IMG/VR virus record: IMGVR_UViG_2541047865_000003
Length of the DNA stretch: 35,749 nt
Direction: 5' to 3' (one strand)
Origin: a virus
Taxonomy: Duplodnaviria; Heunggongvirae; Uroviricota; Caudoviricetes
Positions 1,678-35,749 of the stretch are shown here, piece by piece. Below the pieces are notes generated by a model, which did not search any database, was not told the DNA's origin, and was given only the letters and a program-made list of their open reading frames with translations. The number at the start of each line of letters is the position of its first letter. Position 1 is the first letter of the stretch. A program made the translations under genes and the position numbers.

Positions 1678-2259
1678 TTACAATCCTACCGCGTCATCCT
1701 TCCTCTGACTATCTACCGGAAAATACCGGTAGAGCGTCGATAACCCCACCCCGTAGATAATGGCCAGTTGCTGGCGGGTATGCCCCTTAGCCAATAGCCG
1801 CCCAATCTGTTCTCGCTCATGAGGCTTTAATGCGTTGGGCCTTCCACCTATGCGTCCCTGTGCTCTGGCTGCTGCTAACCCGGCCAATGTTCGTTCGACG
1901 ATCAACTCACGTTCCATTTCCGCCAGTGCCGACATCACATGGAAAAAGAAACGCCCCATGGCAGTGCTGGTATCAATACTGTCTGTTAAAGAGCGGAAGT
2001 GGGCACCGCGTTCATGTAACTCTGATATCAGTGCGATCAGGTTCTTAACGCTGCGCCCCAGCCTGTCCAGTTTCCACACGACCAGGGTGTCTCCGCTATT
2101 AACGCACTTTAAAGCGCGTTTCAGACCGGGGCGGCTGGCAACTTTTCCGCTCATACGGTCTTCAAAAATGCGGTCACAGTTTGCGCTTATGAGTGCATTA
2201 CGCTGTAAATCGCTGTTCTGGTCGATTGTTGATACGCGGATATAACCAATGACGGCCAT
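1678..2259 (-). CDS. gin: Serine-recombinase DNA invertase (Gin/Hin/Cin/Pin family)
   Basis: 193-aa product from MAVIGYIRVSTIDQNSDLQRNAL…, closely matching the Gin/Hin N-terminus (catalytic Ser in VST, C-terminal HTH …STLYRYF). ATG at 2257-2259 preceded by a GGAGGAG RBS. The track ORF 1678..2421 is an upstream in-frame extension. Confidence 0.85.
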   Translation of the reverse strand: MAVIGYIRVSTIDQNSDLQRNALISANCDRIFEDRMSGKVASRPGLKRALKCVNSGDTLVVWKLDRLGRSVKNLIALISELHERGAHFRSLTDSIDTSTAMGRFFFHVMSALAEMERELIVERTLAGLAAARAQGRIGGRPNALKPHEREQIGRLLAKGHTRQQLAIIYGVGLSTLYRYFPVDSQRKDDAVGL

Positions 2260-2321
2260 CAATTCTCCTCCTCTATGTCGCGGTGGGAGGATTTTTACAG
2301 ATTTCGCTATGTGTAACCGCT

Positions 2322-2347
2322 TTTCCAAAAACCTTGGTTTGGGAGAA
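2322..2347. repeat. gix/hix-like recombination crossover site (copy next to gin)
   Basis: 26-bp site TTTCCAAAAACC-TT-GGTTTGGGAGAA, resembling the Hin hix consensus TTCTTGAAAACC-AA-GGTTTTTGATAA. Inverted relative to the 4154-4179 copy, sharing a ~21-bp identical core. Confidence 0.75.
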
Positions 2348-2800
2348 GGTTCGGCATTACCCGTTGGTGTGCCTGTCCCGTGGCCTTCCGCCACTCCGCC
2401 AACAGGCTGGCTAAAATGCAATGGTGCGGCTTTTTCTGCTGAAGAATACCCGGAACTGGCAAAGGTTTATCCGACAAATAAATTGCCTGATTTACGCGGT
2501 GAATTTATTCGTGGCTGGGATGACGGACGTGGAGTGGATGCCGGGCGACAATTATTATCTTCACAGGGGGATGCAATAAGAAATATTGAGGGATTCGCAG
2601 ATGGCGGGATCGGTATGTCTTTTGATGCAATCAGAGGGGCTTTTTACGATGCAGGAACACGATCAGCGAGAATGCCGAATAACACAACTACTATAGACAA
2701 AACCGATGACCTTGGATTCGACGCCTCTCGTGTCGTGCCAACAGCTAATGAAAACCGTCCACGTAACATCGCCTTTAATTATATTGTGAGGGCTGCATAA
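2348..2800 (+). CDS. Alternative tail-fibre C-terminal variable segment (Sv'), no own start; would fuse to the constant S N-terminus after inversion
   Basis: Frame open through the crossover site, encoding the same NLGLGE junction as the S gene, then a receptor-binding-like region (PVGVPVPWPSATPPTGWLKCNGAAFSAEEYPELAKVYP). Stop at 2798-2800 overlaps the start of the downstream assembly gene. Confidence 0.65.
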   Translation, partial: GSALPVGVPVPWPSATPPTGWLKCNGAAFSAEEYPELAKVYPTNKLPDLRGEFIRGWDDGRGVDAGRQLLSSQGDAIRNIEGFADGGIGMSFDAIRGAFYDAGTRSARMPNNTTTIDKTDDLGFDASRVVPTANENRPRNIAFNYIVRAA

Positions 2801-3393
2801 TGAAACCTGTTTTTGATGAAAATGGGCTGGCTACAGTGCCGGGTGATATGCGTTGTTTTTATTATGATGCAGTAACGTCTGAATATACGGGCTGGTCTGA
2901 TGAATATATTAATACTGGCGTAAGTATGCCCGCCTGTTCCACTGGTATTGACCCGGGCGAATACATTCCGGGGAAAGTGGCAGTATTTACGGGTAAGGGA
3001 TGGAGCCATGAAGAAGACCACCGCAATGAGACTGTTTACTCAATCGAAAATGGCGCAGCTGTTACAGTGGATTATATCGGTGCCATCAAAGACGGTTATG
3101 TCACGCTTTCACCGTTAACGCCATACGATAAATGGGATGGTGAGAAATGGGTGACAGATACTGAGGCACAGCATAGTGCCGCACTAGACGCGGCAGAAGC
3201 ACAGCGCCAGTCGCTGATTGATGCTGCAATGGCTTCCATCAGTCTGATTCAACTGAAATTACAGGCCGGGCGGAAGCTGACGCAGGCAGAAACAACCCGA
3301 CTTAACGCCGTGCTGGATTATATTGACGCGGTGACGGTAACAGATACCAGCACTGCGCCGGATGTCATCTGGCCTGAACTGCCGGAGGCGTAG
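2800..3393 (+). CDS. Tail-fibre assembly protein (U'-like, alternative orientation)
   Basis: 197 aa with the conserved C-terminal assembly-chaperone motif (…DTSTAPDVIWPELPEA). TAATG overlap with Sv'. Confidence 0.75.
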   Translation: MKPVFDENGLATVPGDMRCFYYDAVTSEYTGWSDEYINTGVSMPACSTGIDPGEYIPGKVAVFTGKGWSHEEDHRNETVYSIENGAAVTVDYIGAIKDGYVTLSPLTPYDKWDGEKWVTDTEAQHSAALDAAEAQRQSLIDAAMASISLIQLKLQAGRKLTQAETTRLNAVLDYIDAVTVTDTSTAPDVIWPELPEA

Positions 3394-3807: not shown

Positions 3808-4653
3808 CTACCGTCCTATCGAAATATAACTGAATCTGTATTGCTGTGAGATATCACTGGTTGCCACACGCCACGCTGAATTACTGATATGTTCAAAATT
3901 TACAGACAAAACCTGCGGGGCAGGATTCGACGGGTCTGACTGAACGGCATCAGACATAACACTGACTGAAACCATCGGCTGATTAGGGAATGGTATAGGG
4001 AAGTGTCCACTGATAAAGCGGGTCGTGTTTCCTGAAAAAGTGCCAAACTGAACAATATATCCACCTGGTAGCCTGAACCATCCCGAACCAGAAGCGAATG
4101 CTCCCATATCCGGTATCTGATTATCTCCTGTGCCCACATCCCTTTTCGCCGCTTCTCCCAAACCAAGGTTTTGAAGAAAGGCTGCCTTATCGGGAATATC
4201 CGCACCGTTCTGGTCTTTGGCCAGTTTCTCCGCCAGCTTGTTCAGCACTGTGGTCGCAAAGTTCGGATCGTTGCCAAGGGCATCAGCCAGCTCTTTCAGC
4301 GTATCCAGTGTTTCTGGGGCTGTACCTGCAAGCGCAGCAATCGCCCTCGCCACAAATTCTGTCGTCACCAGCTTTTTGCTGTTGTCATTAGCTGCAGGCG
4401 TGGGGGCTGTTGGCGTACCCGTGAATGTTGGGCTGGCCTTCGTCGCATACTGGGTATGCGGGTCGGCCGCTGCGATGTGTTTCGCGAGATCTGAACCGCC
4501 TTTTTCAACCTGCTGTTTCAGGTATGAAGTACGGCTGGCCAGCTGTTTAGCCTGACGGTTAGAAATTCCATCAGGCCCACCCAGTACGGGGTCGGAGACC
4601 TCAATCTGGTAGATGCCGTCTTCCCACTGCGGGGTTTCGGGTAGATTTGCCAT
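3808..4653 (-). CDS. Tail-fibre protein (constant N-terminal part 4180..4653 plus variable part inside the invertible segment)
   Basis: 281 aa with a typical tail-fibre N-terminus (MANLPETPQWEDGIYQIE…) and the hix-encoded NLGLGE junction. Crossover site lies inside the coding sequence at 4154-4179. Confidence 0.85.
   Translation of the reverse strand: MANLPETPQWEDGIYQIEVSDPVLGGPDGISNRQAKQLASRTSYLKQQVEKGGSDLAKHIAAADPHTQYATKASPTFTGTPTAPTPAANDNSKKLVTTEFVARAIAALAGTAPETLDTLKELADALGNDPNFATTVLNKLAEKLAKDQNGADIPDKAAFLQNLGLGEAAKRDVGTGDNQIPDMGAFASGSGWFRLPGGYIVQFGTFSGNTTRFISGHFPIPFPNQPMVSVSVMSDAVQSDPSNPAPQVLSVNFEHISNSAWRVATSDISQQYRFSYISIGR
4154..4179. repeat. gix/hix-like recombination crossover site (copy inside the tail-fibre gene)
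   Basis: TTCTCCCAAACC-AA-GGTTTTGAAGAA. Inverted partner of 2322-2347. Confidence 0.75.
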
Positions 4654-6668: not shown

Positions 6669-6722
6669 GGGGGCAGTATTGCCCCTGTGCGGGAACGCCG
6701 ATATTAAAGGCGTTTAAGAAGG

Positions 6723-12463: not shown

Positions 12464-12527
12464 GATCGTGCTCCTGTGTAAGTTCAGAGCAGTATGTCTG
12501 GTGGTGGGACTGGCAGATATTAAAGGG

Positions 12528-12554
12528 GATTAAGAAGAAAGGGGCCGAAGCCCC
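12528..12554 (-). terminator. Rho-independent terminator inside the tail gene cluster
   Basis: Minus-strand GGGGC-TTCG-GCCCC hairpin (at ~12541-12554) followed by TTTCTTCTT, just downstream of the 93-aa ORF stop. Confidence 0.55.
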
Positions 12555-16313: not shown

Positions 16314-17267
16314 TTATTTCACGATGTTGGTGACGAGATACCCGGCATCGCCACCGACCACGGCGACTTTGTAGATATCGGTATAACGGCAGTACTTCAC
16401 CTTGCCGCCGACGCCGTCGTATTTATCCGCCACCGGCATCCCTTTACGGCGCAGGGTGTAGCCGAAGGACGGCTCGTTTTCGTCGGCGCTGTCGGTGCCC
16501 GGCTGGGGTTTGCCGACGTAATGCAGCATCAGGTTGTCGCCCCAGATATCAGCCGGGACTTTGTCCTTGTTCTGCGCGTCTTTCATGGAGGCCATAGAGA
16601 CCGGCTCGCCGATCACCACATCTTCCAACTGGAAAAGGTCTTTCAGAATTTCGATGGTGATACGCTTGCGCTCGTTGGCTCCAATCGCGGCCTGAATCGC
16701 CGGGTGGAACTTCAGCAGCGACATGACGCTGGCCCCCATGGTCATCAGGTTTGGGCGCAGGCCGGTTTTGTTACGTACCGCCTCAATGCCACCTTCAATG
16801 ATGCCAATTGGATCACCTTTACCACCGACCCAGCGTTCAGCAGCTGCCAGTGCTTTAACGGACGATGCCGGGTAAACGTTTTTGTCCTGCGCCAGACGGG
16901 CCGCATACAGTTCGCGCTTCAGGTTGACGCCACTGGTCACGCGACGAATGGCCTTGGCCTCTTCGTTGAACATCGACTCCGCCTGCTCGCGGTAGTCCAC
17001 CGGCGCGGCCAGATCGTGCTCGTTAAGAACCAGATCCAGTTTGCCGGTCTTCTCACGTACCAGGACGTTACTGTCAGCCCCCACGGCACGCTCGGTGTCG
17101 TACTCAACAAAGGCGGATTTACCGAAGGTCGGGACGGTCACACCTTCCTTATCGGTCTGGACAATGGGGAAGATGCGTTCGCCGATAAATGCGGCATTTT
17201 TATAACCGCGAGCGATGCTGGTCAGCACCGGGTCAACAACGCGCTTACCCTTTAAATAGTCAGACAT
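16314..17267 (-). CDS. Major head subunit (Mu T-like)
   Basis: 317 aa, N-terminus MSDYLKGKRVVDPVLTSIARGYKN…; follows the protease/scaffold gene. Confidence 0.85.
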   Translation of the reverse strand: MSDYLKGKRVVDPVLTSIARGYKNAAFIGERIFPIVQTDKEGVTVPTFGKSAFVEYDTERAVGADSNVLVREKTGKLDLVLNEHDLAAPVDYREQAESMFNEEAKAIRRVTSGVNLKRELYAARLAQDKNVYPASSVKALAAAERWVGGKGDPIGIIEGGIEAVRNKTGLRPNLMTMGASVMSLLKFHPAIQAAIGANERKRITIEILKDLFQLEDVVIGEPVSMASMKDAQNKDKVPADIWGDNLMLHYVGKPQPGTDSADENEPSFGYTLRRKGMPVADKYDGVGGKVKYCRYTDIYKVAVVGGDAGYLVTNIVK

Positions 17268-17280
17268 GTTCTCTCCTTAA

Positions 17281-18378
17281 TTACAGGCAGCGGGAGACAG
17301 CAGCGTCGTAGCTGATGCCTTCTTTTTTCGACAGTTCCAGCGCTTTCTGATGCAGCGCCAGACGTTCCGGGTCGGCTTCAGCGAACTCTGCTGACGTCGT
17401 TTTGATCTCCGTGTTCACGCGGTCTTTGGTCGCGTGCTCACTGAAATTCAGTACCGGCTCAGTGCTGTCCAGCAGCGTCTTAAACGCCGTGGCCAGAGGG
17501 GTGCGGATATCGCCTTCGGCAAACTCAACCGGCTTGTCGCCTGCAGAGACCGCGTCCAGAATGGCCACGACAACCGACTTCGCTTTAGGAGCCAGTCGGC
17601 CATCGCCAACCAGCTTCTCGGCAAAGGAGACGTTGTCCGCGTGCAGTTTGTCCTGCTTAGCCTTCGCTTCCTGTTCCGCCCGCTGGGTGGCTTCCGCTTT
17701 CAGACGCGTGTTTTCCGCCTGAAGCGCTTTGATTTCTTCTTCAGTCATGGTGCTGTTCTCTTTTTGAGGGGTGGGATTGTGTTCACTGAAGTCCGGTTCA
17801 GACTTCCCGGTGTCGCGGTAAGCCTCTTCACGCAGGGAGTCCACCTGCCATGAAGGAAGCACCTTGTCGGTCTCGTCCAGCCCGAACTGGGCGATCAGAA
17901 AATCGCGCAGACGGCCCCATAAAGAGGCATTGGTGATATCACTCCAGTCGGCAAACTCCACGACGCCTTCTTCTTTCTCACCAAACGAAACCTGCTTAAG
18001 CCCCTTAATGGACGGTGGCTGCGCCCCCAGAAAGCCGACATGACGCAGGTAAAGCGTGCCGGGCTTCGGGTTGTTCGGTGAGTCCGGGAGATAGAACGAG
18101 GCTGAGACCTTCTTGAAGCGCCCGTTGCCCACCAGTTCGGCAAACTGCGGGTCGAGCTGGTCAGGCTCAGCCAGCAGATCGCCGCCGTTAAGCGACAGGG
18201 ATTTCACCCAGCCCCACGCCGGGTCTTCCGTTTTGGGGTGGCCAATAACGAGTGGTGCTTCATGGACGGACGGGTCATAGGCTTTCACGCAGGCGGCAAG
18301 ATCGCTTTGCGTGAACGGCAGTTTCGTGCCGTGCATATCGGTATGAGTACCGGCTTTAAAAATGTGAATGGCTGGCAT
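17281..18378 (-). CDS. Head maturation protease / scaffold (Mu I-like)
   Basis: 365 aa, N-terminal protease-like region (MPAIHIFKAGTHTD…) and a charged, helical C-terminal scaffold-like region (EEEIKALQAENTRLKAEATQRAEQEAKAK…). Confidence 0.8.
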   Translation of the reverse strand: MPAIHIFKAGTHTDMHGTKLPFTQSDLAACVKAYDPSVHEAPLVIGHPKTEDPAWGWVKSLSLNGGDLLAEPDQLDPQFAELVGNGRFKKVSASFYLPDSPNNPKPGTLYLRHVGFLGAQPPSIKGLKQVSFGEKEEGVVEFADWSDITNASLWGRLRDFLIAQFGLDETDKVLPSWQVDSLREEAYRDTGKSEPDFSEHNPTPQKENSTMTEEEIKALQAENTRLKAEATQRAEQEAKAKQDKLHADNVSFAEKLVGDGRLAPKAKSVVVAILDAVSAGDKPVEFAEGDIRTPLATAFKTLLDSTEPVLNFSEHATKDRVNTEIKTTSAEFAEADPERLALHQKALELSKKEGISYDAAVSRCL

Positions 18379-18592
18379 TTTGCTGTCCCGCGTTACGTTG
18401 TCGGGGACAGTCTGTGGAAAAAGCGTCAGCAGCGCTTTTAATCTGCTTTAGAAAAAATCGGGGGTATCAGTACGGGGAATGTCACGCTGCGGGCGAATAG
18501 TGGTGCAAAGCGGGGGCTGTAAAGCCTTTATAAAGGTAATACAGCCCCTCAGCGGCTGGCAATGATAAATCACCCGCCTGCAGAGACAAAAC

Positions 18593-19051
18593 TCAGCGAC
18601 GGGCCGCTGCTTCAAGATGGCGGACAATCGTATCGAGGATAGGGACAACCACTTCAGGCTGCAGCTCACCGTCCCCCGTCAGCGGCAGGAACGGACGGGC
18701 AGGAAGTTCAACGGACTCATTACGCCCCGTTTTACCCCCAAACTGGTGAATCGGCCCATAAACGACATTAGTGCCAACCGCTGCCTGCCGGTCGTCATGG
18801 TCGGTTGATACCGACCCCATCAGACGCCCGGTATCCTGCAGCGTTTGCCCGTCGCGCTCCTGCGCTGCCAGCGAGGGAGTCCACCCCGGACGCCCCTCAT
18901 CGAGAAAGTTAAACTGCGTTTCCGCCAGCAGGGTTCCGGCGATTTTGCGCATCGCGGGTTCCAGGTCTGTGGCAGCAAGATCCAGCGCACGGAGGCTCCG
19001 GCGCAGGGATTCATCGTTAATGGTGACATTGACCAGGTTATCGGAAGCCAT
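18593..19051 (-). CDS. Virion morphogenesis protein (Mu G-like)
   Basis: Start at MASDNLVNVTIND… with a GAGG RBS, 2 nt after the F stop. The upstream extension in the track overlaps F and is not used. Confidence 0.65.
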   Translation of the reverse strand: MASDNLVNVTINDESLRRSLRALDLAATDLEPAMRKIAGTLLAETQFNFLDEGRPGWTPSLAAQERDGQTLQDTGRLMGSVSTDHDDRQAAVGTNVVYGPIHQFGGKTGRNESVELPARPFLPLTGDGELQPEVVVPILDTIVRHLEAAARR

Positions 19052-19053
19052 CG

Positions 19054-19875
19054 TTATCCTCTCAGTTCCTGCTGTGCCAGCGGTTGAAGCGTCCCCTGAT
19101 AGCGGGCAAGGTCGGGACGGTATGCTGCCCCCGGCGCATAAGACCAGCCGACGTCGGTAGCCACCTTCGTGGTGCCGGTATTGAAGGTGGCGACGTTCTG
19201 CATCTCGCCGGTTTTCTCTGAGACCAGCTTCAGCTCCCATCCCAGAGCTGCGCCAGAACCTGACACCTTCAGGCCACGGGCACGCACATCCGCCGCGCTC
19301 AGGGCAATCACGCCACAACGGCAGCGCCAGCCGTTCGGCGGATAGAACGCCTGCCAGAACGGGTCATCATAGCGCAGCACCAGACCATGCAGCGCCAGAT
19401 GGCTCTTGCGGGTATGGCTGTCGTTGATGCCGGTATACATCCAGTACGGCCTGTCGTCGACGTTCTCCATCTGCTCAGCCCAGCGACCGGCGCTGTAGAG
19501 TACGGACATATTTGTGCGAAAGATGGTGTCGAGACGCCATGGGCTGCCCTGCTGGATGGTGACCGGCTCGCCCGTTACCGGGTCGGTGGTGTCACGTGAC
19601 CCCCACCATCCCTTGCGCTGCAGCTCCGGCTCCAGCTCCTGCCGGAACCAGCGGCCTGTTTTTCCTTCATCGACAGCCTGCTGCAGTGCCCCGCGAATAT
19701 CTTCCAGGATATCAAGGCGGGTCACTTTGGCGACGGTAAAGGCGCGGGCATGGGCATCCTGCCACATCTCCTCCCAGTCCCACGTGAAGCTATACCCTTT
19801 GGACTTCAGGTAACTGATAGCCCGTTTGGGGGGCAACGTCATGCAGTACGCCAGTTCAGCCGTTGTCACGCTCAT
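19054..19875 (-). CDS. Head morphogenesis protein (Mu F-like)
   Basis: ~273 aa after the portal gene. Start chosen at MSVTTAEL… with a GGGGG RBS; exact start uncertain. Confidence 0.7.
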   Translation of the reverse strand: MSVTTAELAYCMTLPPKRAISYLKSKGYSFTWDWEEMWQDAHARAFTVAKVTRLDILEDIRGALQQAVDEGKTGRWFRQELEPELQRKGWWGSRDTTDPVTGEPVTIQQGSPWRLDTIFRTNMSVLYSAGRWAEQMENVDDRPYWMYTGINDSHTRKSHLALHGLVLRYDDPFWQAFYPPNGWRCRCGVIALSAADVRARGLKVSGSGAALGWELKLVSEKTGEMQNVATFNTGTTKVATDVGWSYAPGAAYRPDLARYQGTLQPLAQQELRG

Positions 19876-21352
19876 GCAGACGCCCCCAGACAGTTGCAAC
19901 AAACATAATCCGTGCCAGCCGTTCCTGCAGGTCTTCAGCGTTCATCTGCGGGTACAGCTCGGCCAGTTCGCCCAGCAGCTCAGACGGATTGACGCCATCT
20001 TCAACCCGCTTAAACAAAGGAGCCAGTACGGGTTCCAGCGTGCCATTTAACGCGCCTCCGTTCATCAGAATATCCAGCGCGTCGTCCAGGGCCTGCTGTG
20101 CCTGAATATCGGCATCAATAGCTTCGGCAAATGACAGCGGCAGCATGTTCTTCTGGCGTTCTGACGGTGGTGTCTCGTCAATATCACCGTCCTGCAGCTG
20201 GTACTCACGCTTGAAGTATTGCGGGGTGAAGACCACACCGGCGCGGCTGAGTTTCTCGTCGCGGGTTGCCTGGGTATCGTCGACCGTTCCCTGTTCCCAC
20301 ATCTTCCAGACGGGGCTGGCCACGTCGCCAAAGTTCATTGATACCGCCATCCTGATGGCCTGATTCACCGCGCTTTCCACGATATCAGCGTCAGCGTCAC
20401 GGATATCATCAGTAACCTCCAGTCCGGCCTGCGCGGAGGCGCGGTTACTGTTGGCCTCGGTGGTCTGGTTCTGCCCCAGCAGGGCGATGGAGATTTCACT
20501 GCGGGCAAGCGTTATCAGGTTCTGATAAATATCGCTGCTGTCGGCCTTGCCTGCGGCCTCCTTAATTTCAATGGAGGAATCGTCGGGGATAGCGGCCACC
20601 GCGTCTTCCACCATTGCCTCCATGGAATCCAGCAGCAGGTCAATCTCACCCTGAGCGGTACCGCGCGGATGCTTGCCGATAACCCACGGTGAGCCATATT
20701 TCTCGGCAAAGCGCACCCAGAACTTCATGCCGCCTTTTTTGAAGGTCACGGGCCAGAAGCACATCGACAGGTCAGGGAAGCCATACGGGTTATCGTAGGT
20801 CGCGTCCTGACGCGGTACCACAAACTTGTTCAGCGGTACCGGCTCGCCTTCCAGCCCGGCGTCCTTGGCGCGAAAGCGCAGCAGGTTGTCGTTGTCGAAC
20901 TGGAACCACTCAGGGGGTTTACCTACGATATCGGCAATGGCCCAGGATTTAACAGAGCGTCCCCACATGATCTCACAGGGCTGATACCCGTAGAGAACGG
21001 CGTCGGTCATCTCGCCGATGATGCGGGACAGATCCAGATCGTCGAGCATATCCCGGATGAAGCTGAATACCCGCGCCGGGGCATGACCACGTTCAAGACC
21101 GCGCTCCAGCGATTTGACCGCCGCCTTACGCCTGCGGATGCAGCCACCGACCAGCGGGTCGGTACGCAGCTCGCGATAGATGCGGATATCCCGGCCCTGA
21201 GATTTCAGAATGGGGTCAGGGTTAGGCAGGTACATCCCCAGCCCGAAGAAGTCGATGGAACGGCTGCGCGAGGCGATCTGCTCCGTCAGTGTTTTATTAG
21301 GTTCGGCAAATTTGACGAACTCACTGGGTGAAACCCAGAGTCCACGGGCCAT
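19856..21352 (-). CDS. Portal protein (Mu gp29-like)
   Basis: 498 aa directly after the terminase with overlapping stop/start. Confidence 0.8.
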   Translation of the reverse strand: MARGLWVSPSEFVKFAEPNKTLTEQIASRSRSIDFFGLGMYLPNPDPILKSQGRDIRIYRELRTDPLVGGCIRRRKAAVKSLERGLERGHAPARVFSFIRDMLDDLDLSRIIGEMTDAVLYGYQPCEIMWGRSVKSWAIADIVGKPPEWFQFDNDNLLRFRAKDAGLEGEPVPLNKFVVPRQDATYDNPYGFPDLSMCFWPVTFKKGGMKFWVRFAEKYGSPWVIGKHPRGTAQGEIDLLLDSMEAMVEDAVAAIPDDSSIEIKEAAGKADSSDIYQNLITLARSEISIALLGQNQTTEANSNRASAQAGLEVTDDIRDADADIVESAVNQAIRMAVSMNFGDVASPVWKMWEQGTVDDTQATRDEKLSRAGVVFTPQYFKREYQLQDGDIDETPPSERQKNMLPLSFAEAIDADIQAQQALDDALDILMNGGALNGTLEPVLAPLFKRVEDGVNPSELLGELAELYPQMNAEDLQERLARIMFVATVWGRLHERDNG

Positions 21353-22875
21353 CAGTAATCCTCCAGCATACGGGCCGCCTGACGACGACGGCGTGAGCTT
21401 GCCTTCACCGGCCCTTTGTTAATTTCACGACTGGCGAAGTACGCCAGCGCCAGTGCGATGGCTGAATCCCCGTGACGCTTGCCACTGTCAGACTTCGCTT
21501 TTGAGCGCTGTTCCGGCACGCGGGGAACGCCGTTTACCACCTGAACGGCCCGCAGGTCATCCAGCGTATCTTCATCCTTCGGTAAATCCACCAGGTTGCC
21601 ATCTTCCAGCGCAGCCTTGACCGGCGGCATATGCTCGCGATACCAGTTTTCAGTTGGCATCACCTGCTTAACCCGGCTGGAGCCGTAGCGCTGCATGGCG
21701 TATTCGGCGAGGTAAGAGCCGTTACCACGGGCATCAAACGCTGCACCCAGCAGACCGGGCAGGCCATCCATCAGGTACCAGGCGATTTGCTCCTGCTGTT
21801 TGAACGGCACGTTGCGCAGCTCCAGCACGAACGGCACGCGGCGAACCAGGTTCTTCTCCTGCAGCAGGGGATAGTCCACCGACAGGTCACCGCTGCGGCC
21901 AAAGTCGCGACCCAGGAAAGAACGTGCGTCAGCGGGGAGCGCCTCCAGCAACGGTTTCAGATGTGTATCAAGCCACTCCTGCGTCTCGCTCCAGCGGACA
22001 TCATCGGGCTTCAGCTCGTAACCCTCCGGGCAGGTCAGACGCAACACCGGCGTGCCAGCCGACATACGGGACTCAATCAGGGCGCGGGACAGCCAGGCTC
22101 CGCCACCGTTGGCCGGAACACAGTCAAGCTCCTCCGATGCACCGGCACCGTAGAATTTGTACACCGATGCCATCCACGCCTGCTCGGATGCTTCCGACCA
22201 TTCTTTCCCGGTACGCAGGCAGACGCGGTGGAACAGCCCTTGGGACACAGCCTCCTGAAAAGTAATGCGATGTACGCTGCCCCCCTGACGCCCGGCCCGG
22301 ATATCACCGATAAGCGTATTGAACGGGTTATCGTCACCGTCATGGGTGGAGATAACGCGCACTTTACCGCCCCAGATAAGCATCGCCAGCGCCGCCTTCA
22401 GCAGTTCGTCCAGTTGCTCATGGAACGCCGCTTCGTCGATAACGATGATGCCCTGACGGCCACGCAGGTTAGACGGACGGCTGGAGAGCGCGACAACGCG
22501 GAAGCCGGAGTCAGGGAATTTGATGGTGTAGGTCTTGATATGCTTGTCGTCTTCGTCCTCTTCCCAGAAACCCTCTTCGATTTCACTGGCGGCATAGTTG
22601 AATGCCCGCGCCCACATCGCACACGCCTGGATATATTCGACGGTCATGTCCTGGTTATAGGCGATGTAATACACGTTCATCCCACCCGCAGGGGCTGAAG
22701 AGGCTGCGGTCAGCACGTCATCGGACGCCTCAGCCCAGGTGATACCGGTTCGGCGGCTCTTCTCAATCACCTTGAGCGGAGACGTGTCAGCCACCCAGCG
22801 CTGCTGGTAGGGCATCAGAACGGCGGGGATATCCAGCGCCGAGGTGTCAGGCAAAACAGGAGCAAGCTGGCTCAT
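21352..22875 (-). CDS. Terminase large subunit (Mu gp28-like)
   Basis: 507 aa with an N-terminal ATPase region (…KSRRTGITWAEASD…) and acidic nuclease-like motifs. Confidence 0.8.
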   Translation of the reverse strand: MSQLAPVLPDTSALDIPAVLMPYQQRWVADTSPLKVIEKSRRTGITWAEASDDVLTAASSAPAGGMNVYYIAYNQDMTVEYIQACAMWARAFNYAASEIEEGFWEEDEDDKHIKTYTIKFPDSGFRVVALSSRPSNLRGRQGIIVIDEAAFHEQLDELLKAALAMLIWGGKVRVISTHDGDDNPFNTLIGDIRAGRQGGSVHRITFQEAVSQGLFHRVCLRTGKEWSEASEQAWMASVYKFYGAGASEELDCVPANGGGAWLSRALIESRMSAGTPVLRLTCPEGYELKPDDVRWSETQEWLDTHLKPLLEALPADARSFLGRDFGRSGDLSVDYPLLQEKNLVRRVPFVLELRNVPFKQQEQIAWYLMDGLPGLLGAAFDARGNGSYLAEYAMQRYGSSRVKQVMPTENWYREHMPPVKAALEDGNLVDLPKDEDTLDDLRAVQVVNGVPRVPEQRSKAKSDSGKRHGDSAIALALAYFASREINKGPVKASSRRRRQAARMLEDY

Positions 22876-25780: not shown

Positions 25781-26027
25781 GAGCGTCTCCTTGTGTAGTG
25801 GAGACAGCATCACAAATGGTCGGGGAAAGGGATTTTAAACAGCGTTAATAGTGAGGATGCAGACGTGAACCGCATGATGGCTTTGAAAGAACGACCAGCC
25901 CGGTGCGGTAACACCAGGCTGGTCATCAACCCACAGGTATGCACTGTGAGCCGACCAGGGTTCAGTCAGTCTCGCGAGACCAGACTAGCCTGCCATATTT
26001 TCATTGATTGCAAAAGGCTTACGGATA

Positions 26028-26798
26028 ATGAAAGAACAATCTTTACCCATCGTCCCATGGATTGGCGGTAAACGTCGTCTGGCGAAGCATATTTTACCAT
26101 TGTTTCCGGCCCATACCTGCTATGTGGAGCCGTTCTGCGGGGCAGCTGCGCTCTATTTCCTAAAGACTCCCAGCAAGACCGAAGTCATTAACGATATCAA
26201 CGGGGAACTGGTGAACCTCTATCGGGTGGTCAAGCATCATCTGGAAGAATTTATTCGCCAGTTCAAATGGGCGCTGGTCAGCCGTCAGATTTACAAATGG
26301 TTGCAGGATACGCCGGAAGAAACGCTCACCGACATTCAGCGGGCGGCCCGGTTCTACTACCTGCAGAAACAGGCATTTGGCGGCAAGGTCGCCGATCACA
26401 CATTCGGTACCTCTACAACCAGTGCGCCGCGCTTCAATTTGCTGCGTATTGAGGAAGAACTGTCGATGGCACACCTGCGCCTGTCGAGAACGCTGATAGA
26501 GCATCTGGACTGGCACCAGTGCATAGAGCGATATGATCGCCCGCATACGCTGTTCTACTGTGACCCACCGTACTGGGGAACGGAAGGCTATGGTGTGGAG
26601 TTCGGGCTGGAAAACTATGATCACATGGCAGATTTAGCGCGAAGGATCAAAGGGAAGATGATTATATCAGTGAACGATATCCCGGAAATGCGGCAGGTAT
26701 TCAACGGTCTGAACATGCAGTCGGTTGATATCAGCTACAACCTTAAGGTAACAGGCAAACCCAGCCCGAAGAAAGAGCTGGTAATTTGTAATTTTTGA
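26028..26798 (+). CDS. DNA adenine methyltransferase (Dam-like, N6-adenine)
   Basis: SAM-binding motif (FCGAAALYF) and catalytic DPPY motif. Start chosen at MKEQSLPIVPWIGGK…; the track ORF begins 24 nt upstream. Confidence 0.75.
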   Translation: MKEQSLPIVPWIGGKRRLAKHILPLFPAHTCYVEPFCGAAALYFLKTPSKTEVINDINGELVNLYRVVKHHLEEFIRQFKWALVSRQIYKWLQDTPEETLTDIQRAARFYYLQKQAFGGKVADHTFGTSTTSAPRFNLLRIEEELSMAHLRLSRTLIEHLDWHQCIERYDRPHTLFYCDPPYWGTEGYGVEFGLENYDHMADLARRIKGKMIISVNDIPEMRQVFNGLNMQSVDISYNLKVTGKPSPKKELVICNF

Positions 26799-27825: not shown

Positions 27826-27841
27826 TTGAACATATCTCAAT

Positions 27842-27869
27842 TTGACATACCCGTTTGGGTGCGTACAAT
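27842..27869 (+). promoter_or_regulatory. Candidate sigma70 early promoter (TTGACA-16-TACAAT) with overlapping operator dyad
   Basis: TTGACA at ~27842-27847 and TACAAT at ~27864-27869, upstream of the Ner-like gene. Inverted repeat TTGGGT(N11)ACCCAA straddles the -10; a further ACCCAA lies ~20 bp downstream. Confidence 0.5.
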
Positions 27870-27913
27870 AGACCCAATAGAGTACATCATAACCCAACAG
27901 GAACACGGTGCAT

Positions 27914-28138
27914 ATGAACAAACAACAAGTTCGGGCACGGCTGGTTGAAAGAGGCAGTAGCTTGCGCCAGTTCGCGCTTAACGCGGGCTATGAGCCACGA
28001 ACAGTCACCCAGGCTGTCAGCCGCTGGGCAGGCAAAAGCGAACTTCCACGCGGTCGTTTGACTTATCGGATTTTGCGAGACCTTTCGGTCGCAATAGGCA
28101 AAGAAGTTACCCCCGGCATCCTCAAGGAGGCGTCATGA
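27914..28138 (+). CDS. Ner-like DNA-binding early regulator
   Basis: …LRQFALNAGYEPRTVTQAVSRWAGKSE… resembles the Mu Ner core; first gene of the early operon, divergent from the repressor. Confidence 0.65.
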   Translation: MNKQQVRARLVERGSSLRQFALNAGYEPRTVTQAVSRWAGKSELPRGRLTYRILRDLSVAIGKEVTPGILKEAS

Positions 28139-34945: not shown

Positions 34946-35363
34946 GCAGCGTCTTATTCAACTCATTCATATTGCCCGCAGCGACCTCCAGATGGATGAG
35001 GACACCTACCGCCAGATGCTACAGGGGCTGACCGGCAAAGCCTCAACCAAAGGGATGGATACCCCACAGCTAAACCGCGTGCTGGAATCAATGAAAAAGA
35101 AAGGCTTTCGCATTAAGCCTGCCGGGAAAGCCAAGTCCGGCTTACCGCTCGACAGCCATCCGCAGTCAAAGAAAATCCGTGCGCTATGGCTTGAAATGGC
35201 TGCCGCAGGCATCGTCCGTGACAGTTCAGAGCAGGCGCTGGCGCTGTGGGTTAAACGGGAAACCGGCATCAGCGCGTTACGCTGGCTCAGCAATGAGCAG
35301 GCAAGTAGCGTGATTGAGAAACTGAAGAAGTGGCAGCGCAGAGCTGCGGGAGTGAAGCAATGA
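34935..35363 (+). CDS. GemA-like regulatory protein (Mu gp16 family)
   Basis: Start MMTKQRLIQLIHIARSDLQMDEDTYRQML…, preceded by an AAAGGAG RBS; located immediately before the Mor-like gene as in Mu. Confidence 0.55.
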   Translation: MMTKQRLIQLIHIARSDLQMDEDTYRQMLQGLTGKASTKGMDTPQLNRVLESMKKKGFRIKPAGKAKSGLPLDSHPQSKKIRALWLEMAAAGIVRDSSEQALALWVKRETGISALRWLSNEQASSVIEKLKKWQRRAAGVKQ

Positions 35364-35749
35364 GCGACCTGAATCAGTTTCGTAGTAAAGGGCCGGAACT
35401 GTTGGTGGAACTGGCACAGCATACCTCTGAGACTGTCCGCGAGATTATTGATATCGAACCCGCAGTTGCCGACCAGATTGGTCAGGCCGTCGCGAACCGC
35501 ATGATGCAGGTCTGGGGTGGGCAAAACGTCTATTTTCCGATGGGCATGGTCTGGAAGGTCAGCCAGCGCGACCGGGAAATTTTCCTGGAGTTTGACGGGC
35601 GCAACCATCACGAACTGGCCCGCAAATTTGGTGTTTCACTACAGTGGGTTTACAGCGTGGTGAAGCGGGTCAGAAAAGAAGAACTGGATCGGATGCAGGG
35701 CAAACTGTTTGATGGCGAACCTGATGCCGATACAGGGAAAAAGGAGTAA
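35360..35749 (+). CDS. Mor/C-family transcription activator (middle operon regulator-like)
   Basis: 129 aa from MSDLNQFRSKG…; C-terminal HTH (HELARKFGVSLQWVYSVVKRVRK) and central GGQNVYFP motif parallel Mu Mor (GGGQVYIP … NTVYKAIRR, from memory); ATGA overlap with the GemA-like stop. Confidence 0.65.
   Translation: MSDLNQFRSKGPELLVELAQHTSETVREIIDIEPAVADQIGQAVANRMMQVWGGQNVYFPMGMVWKVSQRDREIFLEFDGRNHHELARKFGVSLQWVYSVVKRVRKEELDRMQGKLFDGEPDADTGKKE

Follow-up and report, generated by a model that had tools for sequence, protein, structure and literature searches.

The 214 bp that separate the G-like and I-like head genes in the viral record IMGVR_UViG_2541047865_000003 (35,749 nucleotides, referred to as a whole as the window) probably act as a control region between two late transcription units, with the I-proximal half (18376-18452) forming the late promoter P_I. 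The window is a BcepMu-type (Bcepmuvirus) transposable prophage of Escherichia coli, and the G/I gap lies within its head-gene module. What we found in the gap is largely ordinary, mainly an activator-dependent late promoter together with one conserved palindromic element, and this invariant central palindrome (block 1, below) is the only part that could prove new. In the proposed arrangement, the G-proximal half (18453-18592) would be the end of the upstream unit, made up of block 1 followed by a C-rich, G-poor spacer.

A predicted late promoter upstream of I

The G/I gap is the largest in the head module, where other neighbouring genes overlap or sit 2-13 nt apart, and gaps of similar size occur at this junction in BcepMu (202 bp), in Mu (196 bp) and throughout the family (~190-215 bp). 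We compared it across the G/I junctions of 62 species genomes and ~126 viral contigs. The gap was mostly unalignable between clades and contained four conserved islands, namely block 1 (CCTTTATAAAGG(C)TTTACAG), block 2 or the promoter box (TTTTCTAAAGCnGATTAAAAG), a short (C/G)AnACTGTC and, directly before the start codon, GGGACAGCA. In the clade alignment, these islands coincide with block 1, the box, the -10 hexamer plus the 5' arm of a hairpin at the I start, and the 3' arm of this hairpin. The elements of the I-proximal half are the following.

18379-18592, minus strand: G/I intergenic control region, 214 bp, between the G stop codon (18593-18595) and the I start (18378).
18437-18452, minus strand: Mor-box, the 16-bp imperfect dyad TCTAA-AGCAGA-TTAAA; predicted activator site, at a predicted -51 to -36 of P_I.
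18415-18436, minus strand: promoter spacer with a T5 tract, 22 bp, T-rich.
18409-18414, minus strand: predicted -10 hexamer CAGACT of P_I (nAnnnT, 22 nt past the dyad).
18383-18410, minus strand: inverted repeat CTGTCCC (18410-18404)/GGGACAG (18389-18383), abutting the I start; its 3' arm contains the Shine-Dalgarno sequence of I.

Dimers of the Mor and C activators bind a 16-bp imperfect dyad of 5-bp inverted repeats around a G/C-rich 6-bp spacer (PMC4390567), which is centred at -43.5 in promoters with a -10 and without a -35 element (PMC4390567; PMC4287176; PMC2582627), and in Mu the P_I promoter is located in the G/I gap (PMC2582627). The Mor-box of the window has half-sites that agree at four of five positions and a 6-bp spacer, AGCAGA, with three G/C positions; no -35 element was seen by inspection at P_I. 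A nAnnnT hexamer was found exactly 22 nt downstream of the dyad in all four promoters of the window (see below), in ~70 relatives and behind the dyad inferred for the Mu promoter Pm. The spacer length was 22 in all of the ~70 distinct related gaps, though the spacer sequence varied, and the hexamer read CAGACT, CAAACT, CACACT, GACACT, GATGAT or GATCAT depending on the clade. Each of ~65 distinct full-length related gaps carried exactly one such site at the same place, and the fixed distance of 22 nt stands against 61-87 nt between block 1 and the box. The layout was also present in Pectobacterium (CTTAA-TGGGGG-TTAAC, then GACACT), in Dickeya, in the Burkholderia lineage (ending in GATGAT or GATCAT) and in the relative L231, whose G is only 40% identical.

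The signature recurs within the window. When the late strand was searched with the pattern nnTAA-N6-TTAnn-N22-nAnnnT, five matches were obtained, compared to zero on the other strand, 0.15 expected per strand from dinucleotide shuffles and no shuffle out of 500 that reached five; alternative spacer lengths gave at most two matches. Four of the five lie just upstream of late operons, those of the holin, I, the tail chaperone and W. The pattern was partly built from three of the five window sites, so that the shuffle statistic is somewhat circular, while the site at 12534, the Mu Pm geometry and the relatives serve as independent checks. The promoter before the tail chaperone gene was found by the pattern, had not been anticipated and played no part in defining it. 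The three sister promoters and the gene for the presumptive activator are listed here.

25806-25849, minus strand: sister late promoter before the holin gene (holin by PF13272), ATTAA-CGCTGT-TTAAA, 22 nt, GATGCT.
12491-12534, minus strand: sister late promoter before the tail assembly chaperone gene (PF10109), CTTAA-TCCCCT-TTAAT, 22 nt, CATACT.
6675-6718, minus strand: sister late promoter at baseplate genes V/W, CTTAA-ACGCCT-TTAAT, 22 nt, AATACT, with the W start codon 7 nt on.
35360-35749, plus strand: Mor-family transcription activator gene (PF08765, E 1e-42), predicted trans factor for P_I.

The sequence TAAAGCnGATTAAAAG is shared unchanged by the window and BcepMu although the rest of the spacer could not be aligned, and BcepMu has a further exact copy of it directly before the holin gene. 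In BcepMu, exact copies of TAAAGCCGATTAAAAG occur twice, just upstream of the holin gene and in the G/I gap, with a related copy between V and W (TTTAG-CCGGCT-TTAAT, 22 nt, CAACAT), and the window has related box copies at the same three places. As exact multi-copy motifs, blocks 1 and 2 gave only their G/I copies when the window was searched with up to three mismatches; the repeated promoter signature surfaced only once block 2 was treated as a dyad at a fixed distance from the -10 hexamer.

The original prediction had assumed a C-like activator encoded beyond the window, which proved wrong since the Mor/C-family gene lies inside it. The annotation of E. coli CFS3292 lists its product as a Mor family protein, which shares 53% identity with BcepMu gp01, including a helix-turn-helix stretch (ELARKFGVSLQW) without any difference, and 30% with Mu Mor. 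The shared helix-turn-helix would account for a box that is retained from E. coli to Burkholderia phages. In Mu Pm, the sole dyad of the 5+6+5 form that we found is AGTAA-AGCCGG-TTAAT, followed after 22 nt by TATCCT, and the BcepMu box CGTAA-AGCCGA-TTAAA is very similar to it. If P_I works like Mu Pm, a dimer of the Mor-family activator would bind TCTAA-AGCAGA-TTAAA with the dyad centred near -43.5, standing in for the missing -35 element, and would recruit sigma-70 RNA polymerase to CAGACT 22 bp downstream, with transcription predicted from the Pm geometry to start at ~18401. The placement of P_I in this gap as in Mu, which had been suggested earlier, is supported; the predicted activator site is the dyad at 18437-18452, ~65 bp downstream of the palindrome and stem that had been flagged. 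Likewise, a repeat described as a weak hairpin followed by a T run does exist (AAAAGCG/CGCTTTT, 18419-18425/18433-18439), but it is the 22-bp promoter spacer rather than a terminator-like structure and its fold was indistinguishable from chance (z -0.67; fold energies were compared with dinucleotide shuffles throughout). The same was true of a small hairpin over the G stop (z -0.56).

A fold-back hairpin appears to be superimposed on this promoter. The inverted repeat at 18383-18389/18404-18410, which the original prediction had noted next to the I ribosome-binding site (RBS), was confirmed, and in read-through RNA it folds more stably than shuffled sequence (-13.1 kcal/mol, z -4.2). The -10 hexamer ends inside its 5' arm, and the predicted start lies 3 nt past this arm. 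Because the 5' arm is upstream of the predicted start, the RBS hairpin is expected only in read-through RNA; the predicted P_I-initiated leader is unstructured (z -0.1). RNA started at P_I would therefore be open and translatable, whereas RNA arriving from G, or from host promoters outside the randomly inserted prophage, would fold and mask the I RBS. We infer from sequence that this fold-back arrangement leaves only activator-driven transcripts translatable and silences read-through RNA. Hairpins of other sequence occupy the same position in Pectobacterium (z -2.7), Dickeya (z -4.8) and L231 (z -3.9), and within the window at the holin promoter P_lys (GTCTCC/GGAGAC, z -3.5) and the tail chaperone promoter P_tail (z -2.4). 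The recurring design suggests how a randomly inserting prophage might silence lethal late genes such as the holin gene under host read-through.

In the Burkholderia lineage (L151-L173; L068, 18811-18870 and 30776-30825), the I start codon lies 6-7 nt past the predicted -10 hexamer, as does the W start codon of BcepMu. Late mRNAs without a leader are predicted from start codons at this distance. In this lineage, the -10 hexamer sits between the arms of an inverted repeat (e.g. GCCGCC...GGCGGC).

Several points weigh against the promoter and fold-back interpretation. As a -10 hexamer CAGACT is poor, although TAGACT and the like serve in the late promoters of Mu, and the dyad spacer AGCAGA is not G/C-rich, unlike in Mu. 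The partial circularity of the shuffle statistic has been mentioned, and the Mor dyad was placed within Mu Pm by combining its published description (-51 to -36) with the sequence, not from a figure. The inverted repeat around the -10 hexamer and the start could be a DNA operator instead. On the G side, inspection showed no suitably spaced -10 hexamer whichever way block 1 is read, and its hairpin did not show significant covariation. The literature that was searched gave no start-site, footprint or expression data for this phage family.

A product encoded by the gap itself, whether a small protein or a stand-alone small RNA, is very improbable. Mechanical open reading frames (ORFs) of 35 amino acids (18482-18589) and 73 amino acids (18448-18669) are present on the minus strand and the whole gap folds slightly more stably than shuffled sequence (z -2.0), but conservation is restricted to short DNA islands and Rfam scans of the gap, at gathering thresholds and at permissive E-values, returned nothing meaningful. 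The small-ORF reading was rejected on account of frame-breaking indels, which are of 1 nt between near-identical relatives (L008, L150) and of many non-triplet lengths between clades. The gap of 214 bp without a convincing ORF among packed head genes, which the original prediction had described, was confirmed with its exact bounds.

The conserved palindrome on the G side

The G-proximal half contains the elements below, of which block 1 is the most conserved in the gap.

18517-18536, minus strand: block 1, CCTTTATAAAGGCTTTACAG.
18513-18548, no strand assigned: outer inverted repeat GGGGCTGTA/TACAGCCCC around block 1, clade-specific, forming a stable hairpin; as an inverted repeat, 18513-18530/18531-18548 (18 nt, 83% complementary), a palindrome within a stem.
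18453-18517, minus strand: pyrimidine-rich spacer with far more C than G, variable in sequence and length, rut-like in composition.
18562-18589, minus strand: weak sigma-70-like match TTGTCT-16-TATCAT (9 of 12 positions) just past the G stop; low confidence.

Block 1 is built from the overlapping palindromes CTTTATAAAG and TAAAGGCTTTA (TAAAGSCTTTA), and a perfect 12-bp palindrome, CCTTTATAAAGG (18525-18536), sits inside the 9-bp outer stem. This palindrome in a stem had been picked out by the original prediction, and we confirmed that it folds more stably than shuffled sequence on the sense strand (-22.7 kcal/mol, z -3.4) as well as the antisense strand (z -5.3). Block 1 is unique in the window. 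Its 16-nt core TTTATAAAGGCTTTAC is identical in BcepMu and invariant in the clade alignment, where block 1 was more uniformly conserved than the promoter box. The exact 15-mer TTTATAAAGGCTTTA was found in the G/I gaps of six further relatives (L231, L275, L262, L309, L280 and L221), two of which, the distant L231 and L275, have it in the reverse orientation with respect to G and I. In a scan of viral contigs, matches to the 15-mer were mostly chance occurrences in AT-rich phages and only those in G+C-rich contexts were informative. High-GC phages of another group (L270, ~3270-3300; L284, ~555-580) have a tandem version, CTTTATAAAGGCTTTATAAAG, ~45 nt before their portal genes, which suggests that the element is used beyond BcepMu-type phages.

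The TATCAT of the sigma-70-like match was conserved only in the clade of the window, PhiKM, L124 and L130. Burkholderia-lineage junctions (L151-L173) carry a third island, GCGCAACG(A/G)TAGCC, ~40-60 nt past the G stop and after a GC-rich hairpin, which has no clear counterpart in the window.

The conservation of block 1 follows its sequence more closely than its pairing. The outer 9-bp stem is limited to the clade of the window and its left arm is absent in the Erwinia clade, while in the Burkholderia lineage the block-1 stem is in a different register. Across 14 Burkholderia-lineage sequences, 83% of cells were paired in this stem compared to 82% in shuffled alignments, and 113 of 500 shuffles reached the observed covariation score. 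Register shifts, stem losses and the lack of significant covariation indicate that the conserved entity is the DNA sequence and not an RNA helix, and we take block 1 to be a sequence-specific recognition site for a protein or enzyme on DNA rather than an RNA element.

These observations bear on a first explanation, in which block 1 and the flanking inverted repeat form the 3'-end hairpin of the upstream holin-to-G transcript and the C-rich spacer acts as a Rho loading site, so that termination or stabilisation would make expression of I depend on P_I. We regard this as unlikely. The hairpin is stable, BcepMu has a 13-bp stem followed by UUUGGUU, and variants in relatives keep sense-strand pairing through G-U pairs (L152, L153, L159, PhiKM and L009). 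The spacer is C-rich and G-poor in Enterobacterales clades, with (C-G)/(C+G) of +0.14 to +0.67 (at least +0.41 except in Dickeya) compared to about -0.04 for whole loci, which fits Rho loading as a compositional argument only. A fold-back hairpin at the I RBS also makes sense if there is read-through to be silenced. However, the stem in the window is followed by the tail CCGCUUUGC without a U tract, and an intrinsic-terminator consensus scan of the gap gave, for the coding strand, only weak stems of 5-6 bp. Erwinia-clade gaps are without the left arm, the element is inverted and the extended stem absent in L231 and L275, covariation was no better than in shuffled controls, and the conserved part is the loop and 3' arm, not the pairing. 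In addition, a distinct canonical terminator separates G from block 1 in L309.

In another explanation, the activator or another phage regulator would use block 1 as its binding site (dyad TAAAG-S-CTTTA) or as a promoter element of the -10 type (TATAAA), serving an accessory slot that is empty in the window; this seems rather doubtful to us. Read on the other strand, block 1 starts with GTAAAGCC, which equals the left half plus spacer of the box inferred in Mu Pm and BcepMu. ORFs start 35-60 nt downstream of block 1 in L231, L262, L270 and L284, and accessory genes are found at the junction in L161, L231, L262 and L309. On the other hand, no -10 hexamer lies 22 nt off in either orientation and inspection gave no conserved -35 element; the gene inserted in L309 is on the opposite strand, and those in L161 are upstream of block 1 and have their own TTGCAA-17-TATAAT promoter. 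Neither the early operator region nor the rest of the window contained a similar site. Two specific versions were rejected: a repressor operator, as no related site occurs in the early control region (27826-27914), and a Mor-type promoter, as neither orientation has a hexamer at the required distance.

A central strong gyrase site, or a similar DNA-architectural site, is a further candidate for the G-proximal half (block 1 and the surrounding GC-rich repeats), and one that the original prediction had not taken into account. It would share the gap with P_I as in Mu, where gyrase at the midpoint of the prophage generates a supercoiled loop that brings the two ends together for replicative transposition. 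The Mu gyrase cut site is annotated 20 bp past the G stop in the same gap, at 48.7% of Mu, and its central position is required for function (PMC3820752; PMC10052514). The Mu site combines strong gyrase cleavage with processive supercoiling and is needed if replicative transposition is to be fast; its deletion is reported to cause a delay of roughly 100 min. Gyrase sites between G and I have been reported for Mu and FluMu (PMC2628397), and a central protected segment for Pseudomonas phage Ab30 (PMC5977238). Similarly, the gap of the window lies at 49.2-49.8% of the 34,463-bp prophage (ends from CFS3292) and that of BcepMu at 50.7-51.3%. Block 1 is single-copy and independent of orientation (inverted in L231 and L275), its conservation over hosts that range from the Enterobacterales to the Burkholderiales is what one might expect if a conserved host enzyme recognised it, and it has phased T/A tracts ~11 bp apart, 50-75 nt past the G stop, like a block conserved between the right arms of the Mu and Sp18 sites. 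Positional homology, single copy, orientation independence and conservation across hosts make such a site a serious candidate, though one that we hold tentatively and below even chances.

Other evidence points away from gyrase. In local alignments scored against shuffles, the window showed no significant similarity to Mu (z 1.3) or Sp18 (z 0.4), compared to z 8.0 between Mu and Sp18. Exact conservation over 15-16 bp exceeds what indirect read-out by gyrase would need, and the tandem form ~45 nt before portal genes (L270, L284) looks like a gene-proximal regulatory site. Oram and Pato reportedly found in 2004 that the central site of a Mu-like prophage of S. Typhi CT18 was cut by gyrase but did not replace the Mu site. 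Scoring the gap by matches to the published 133-bp consensus of the 130-bp gyrase motif (Sutormin 2019; exact and S/W) was uninformative, because the true Mu site, at only the 97th-99th percentile, failed as a positive control. A match of GCGGGTGATTT to the Mu gyrase core, noticed by eye, was discarded after failing the shuffle test in both orientations.

Finally, block 1 may, with some reservation on our part and at less than even probability, be a previously undescribed cis element of transposable phages that is deeply conserved, single-copy, located at the genome centre and functional in either orientation. On this reading, block 1 would be more conserved than the flanking proteins, and a tandem form of it would be reused before portal genes in another phage group. 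Its role could then be to define by sequence the central gyrase or domain-organising site of BcepMu-type phages, or to be recognised by a regulator that has so far escaped notice.

The prophage and its G/I junction

The window gap and those of ~100 close relatives contain no inserted gene. The standing of the junction as an accessory-gene hotspot was nevertheless partly supported when it was aligned across related prophages, an approach proposed with the original prediction: four BcepMu-family relatives carry insertions (L161, L231, L262 and L309), and L026 and L027, Mu-like phages that are less closely related, contain ORFs there as well. Anti-CRISPR genes, which the original prediction had named for the equivalent junction of Pseudomonas Mu-like phages, were not identified among the inserted genes, and an Aca-type regulator or operator was not seen. 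The idea of a degenerate hotspot did not hold, as the window gap represents the standard, fully conserved state.

The insert of L161 (2040-2845) consists of a Tlde1-domain protein (PF10908, E 1e-32) and an overlapping 88-amino-acid membrane protein directly past the G stop, under its own sigma-70 promoter (TTGCAA-17-TATAAT). Tlde1 is a type VI L,D-transpeptidase effector fold, and the pair is likely a toxin/immunity moron. L262 carries a DUF2158 protein, L231 an ORF of 130 amino acids without a family (4182-4574, minus strand) and L309 a membrane protein of 136 amino acids (4080-4490, minus strand), the last on the opposite strand. These three inserts all lie between block 1 and P_I, making the spacer the usual insertion point. 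The junction is therefore a recurrent but rarely used insertion point, at which block 1 keeps to the side of G and P_I remains adjacent to I.

The genes around the gap are arranged as follows.

18593-19051, minus strand: G-like gene (PF05069).
17281-18378, minus strand: I-like gene (PHROG head maturation protease, E 1e-157).
21352-22875, 19856-21352 and 16314-17267, all minus strand: terminase, portal and major head protein genes, in the late series terminase, portal, F, G, I, major head protein.

The gap region was 100% identical in E. coli CFS3292 and phage Phi06_2974 B, 98% in Klebsiella phage KP12 and 86% in E. coli phage PhiKM, while Burkholderia phage BcepMu gave a weak alignment to the window region. 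The junction was carried by 637 of 5,426 complete E. coli genomes, ST131 strains among them, and BcepMu-type prophages, common in this species, are frequent in further Enterobacterales and in Burkholderia as well.

The CFS3292 copy splits gadC, which fixed the ends of the prophage and its length of 34,463 bp; the left end, TGATGCGCCGCGCGATAAATG, resembles the right end of Mu. The prophage of the window begins near 1600 in a fimbrial usher gene (1-1602; PF00577/PF13954), which it truncates at residue 533, and ends ~140 bp past the window. The gadC insertion in CFS3292 is flanked by a 5-6-bp target duplication (GTTGC or CGTTGC), and insertion into the usher and gadC genes with target duplication is typical of random Mu-type transposition.

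A resolvase/invertase gene (PF00239; 1678-2259, minus strand) adjoins tail-fibre and tail-fibre-assembly genes, and the segment 2326-3535 is in the opposite orientation to that in CFS3292. The inversion and the adjoining invertase gene indicate an invertible host-range segment, like the G segment of Mu. Between the lysis cassette and the early region, the opposite strand carries a DNA adenine methylase gene (26004-26798, plus strand; CFS3292 annotation). In L317 (E. coli VTB96929v), the IS66-family element ISCro1 (~1770-3269) is inserted at the very start of the I gene, so that this prophage copy is probably defective.

Comparison with known systems

The closest parallel to the predicted P_I is Mu Pm. 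Both belong to phages with a Mor/C-family (PF08765) activator gene, and both have a 16-bp imperfect dyad nnTAA-N6-TTAnn (Mu AGTAAAGCCGGTTAAT, BcepMu CGTAAAGCCGATTAAA), a distance of 22 bp from the dyad to a weak -10 hexamer, a T tract in the spacer and no -35 element. In contrast to Mu, where Mor and then C act in a cascade, the window phage has a single Mor/C homologue, apparently for all late operons. The 6-bp spacer of the dyad is also not G/C-rich here, and activator binding and the start site are predictions from the sequence. Compared to Mu P_I, the promoter occupies the same genomic position, presumably with the same role at the head of the protease/scaffold and capsid operon, and it is likewise predicted to be an activator-dependent, -10-only promoter. 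The Mu C sites, TTAT-N6-ATAA (Pmom) and CCCGCACC (common to Plys and P_I), are absent from this gap, and the box resembles the Mor site rather than the C site of Mu. The signature nnTAA-N6-TTAnn, 22 bp, nAnnnT provides a concrete and testable description of late promoters in BcepMu-type prophages, with which late operons can be delimited and inserted accessory genes spotted.

The hairpin at the I start recalls the fold-back inhibition of IS10/Tn10 transposase translation that Davis, Simons and Kleckner are said to have described in 1985. Similar to that system, the 5' arm lies upstream of the element's own start, and only external read-through RNA could hide the RBS; different from it, the arrangement is read here from sequence and concerns three late phage promoters instead of a transposase gene.

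Mu-like phages of Pseudomonas have an anti-CRISPR or accessory locus between G and the protease-scaffold gene. Relatives of the window phage carry unrelated accessory genes at the same junction, whereas the gap of the window itself is without an inserted gene.

With the strong gyrase site of Mu, the G-proximal half shares its position between G and I, in the physical middle of a transposable prophage, and a short conserved island of phased T/A tracts. Block 1 differs from it in being far more sequence-invariant than a gyrase arm requires and in showing no significant sequence similarity to it. Should block 1 prove to be the gyrase or domain-organising site, the Mu strong gyrase site would have in it the first counterpart beyond the Mu lineage to be defined by sequence.

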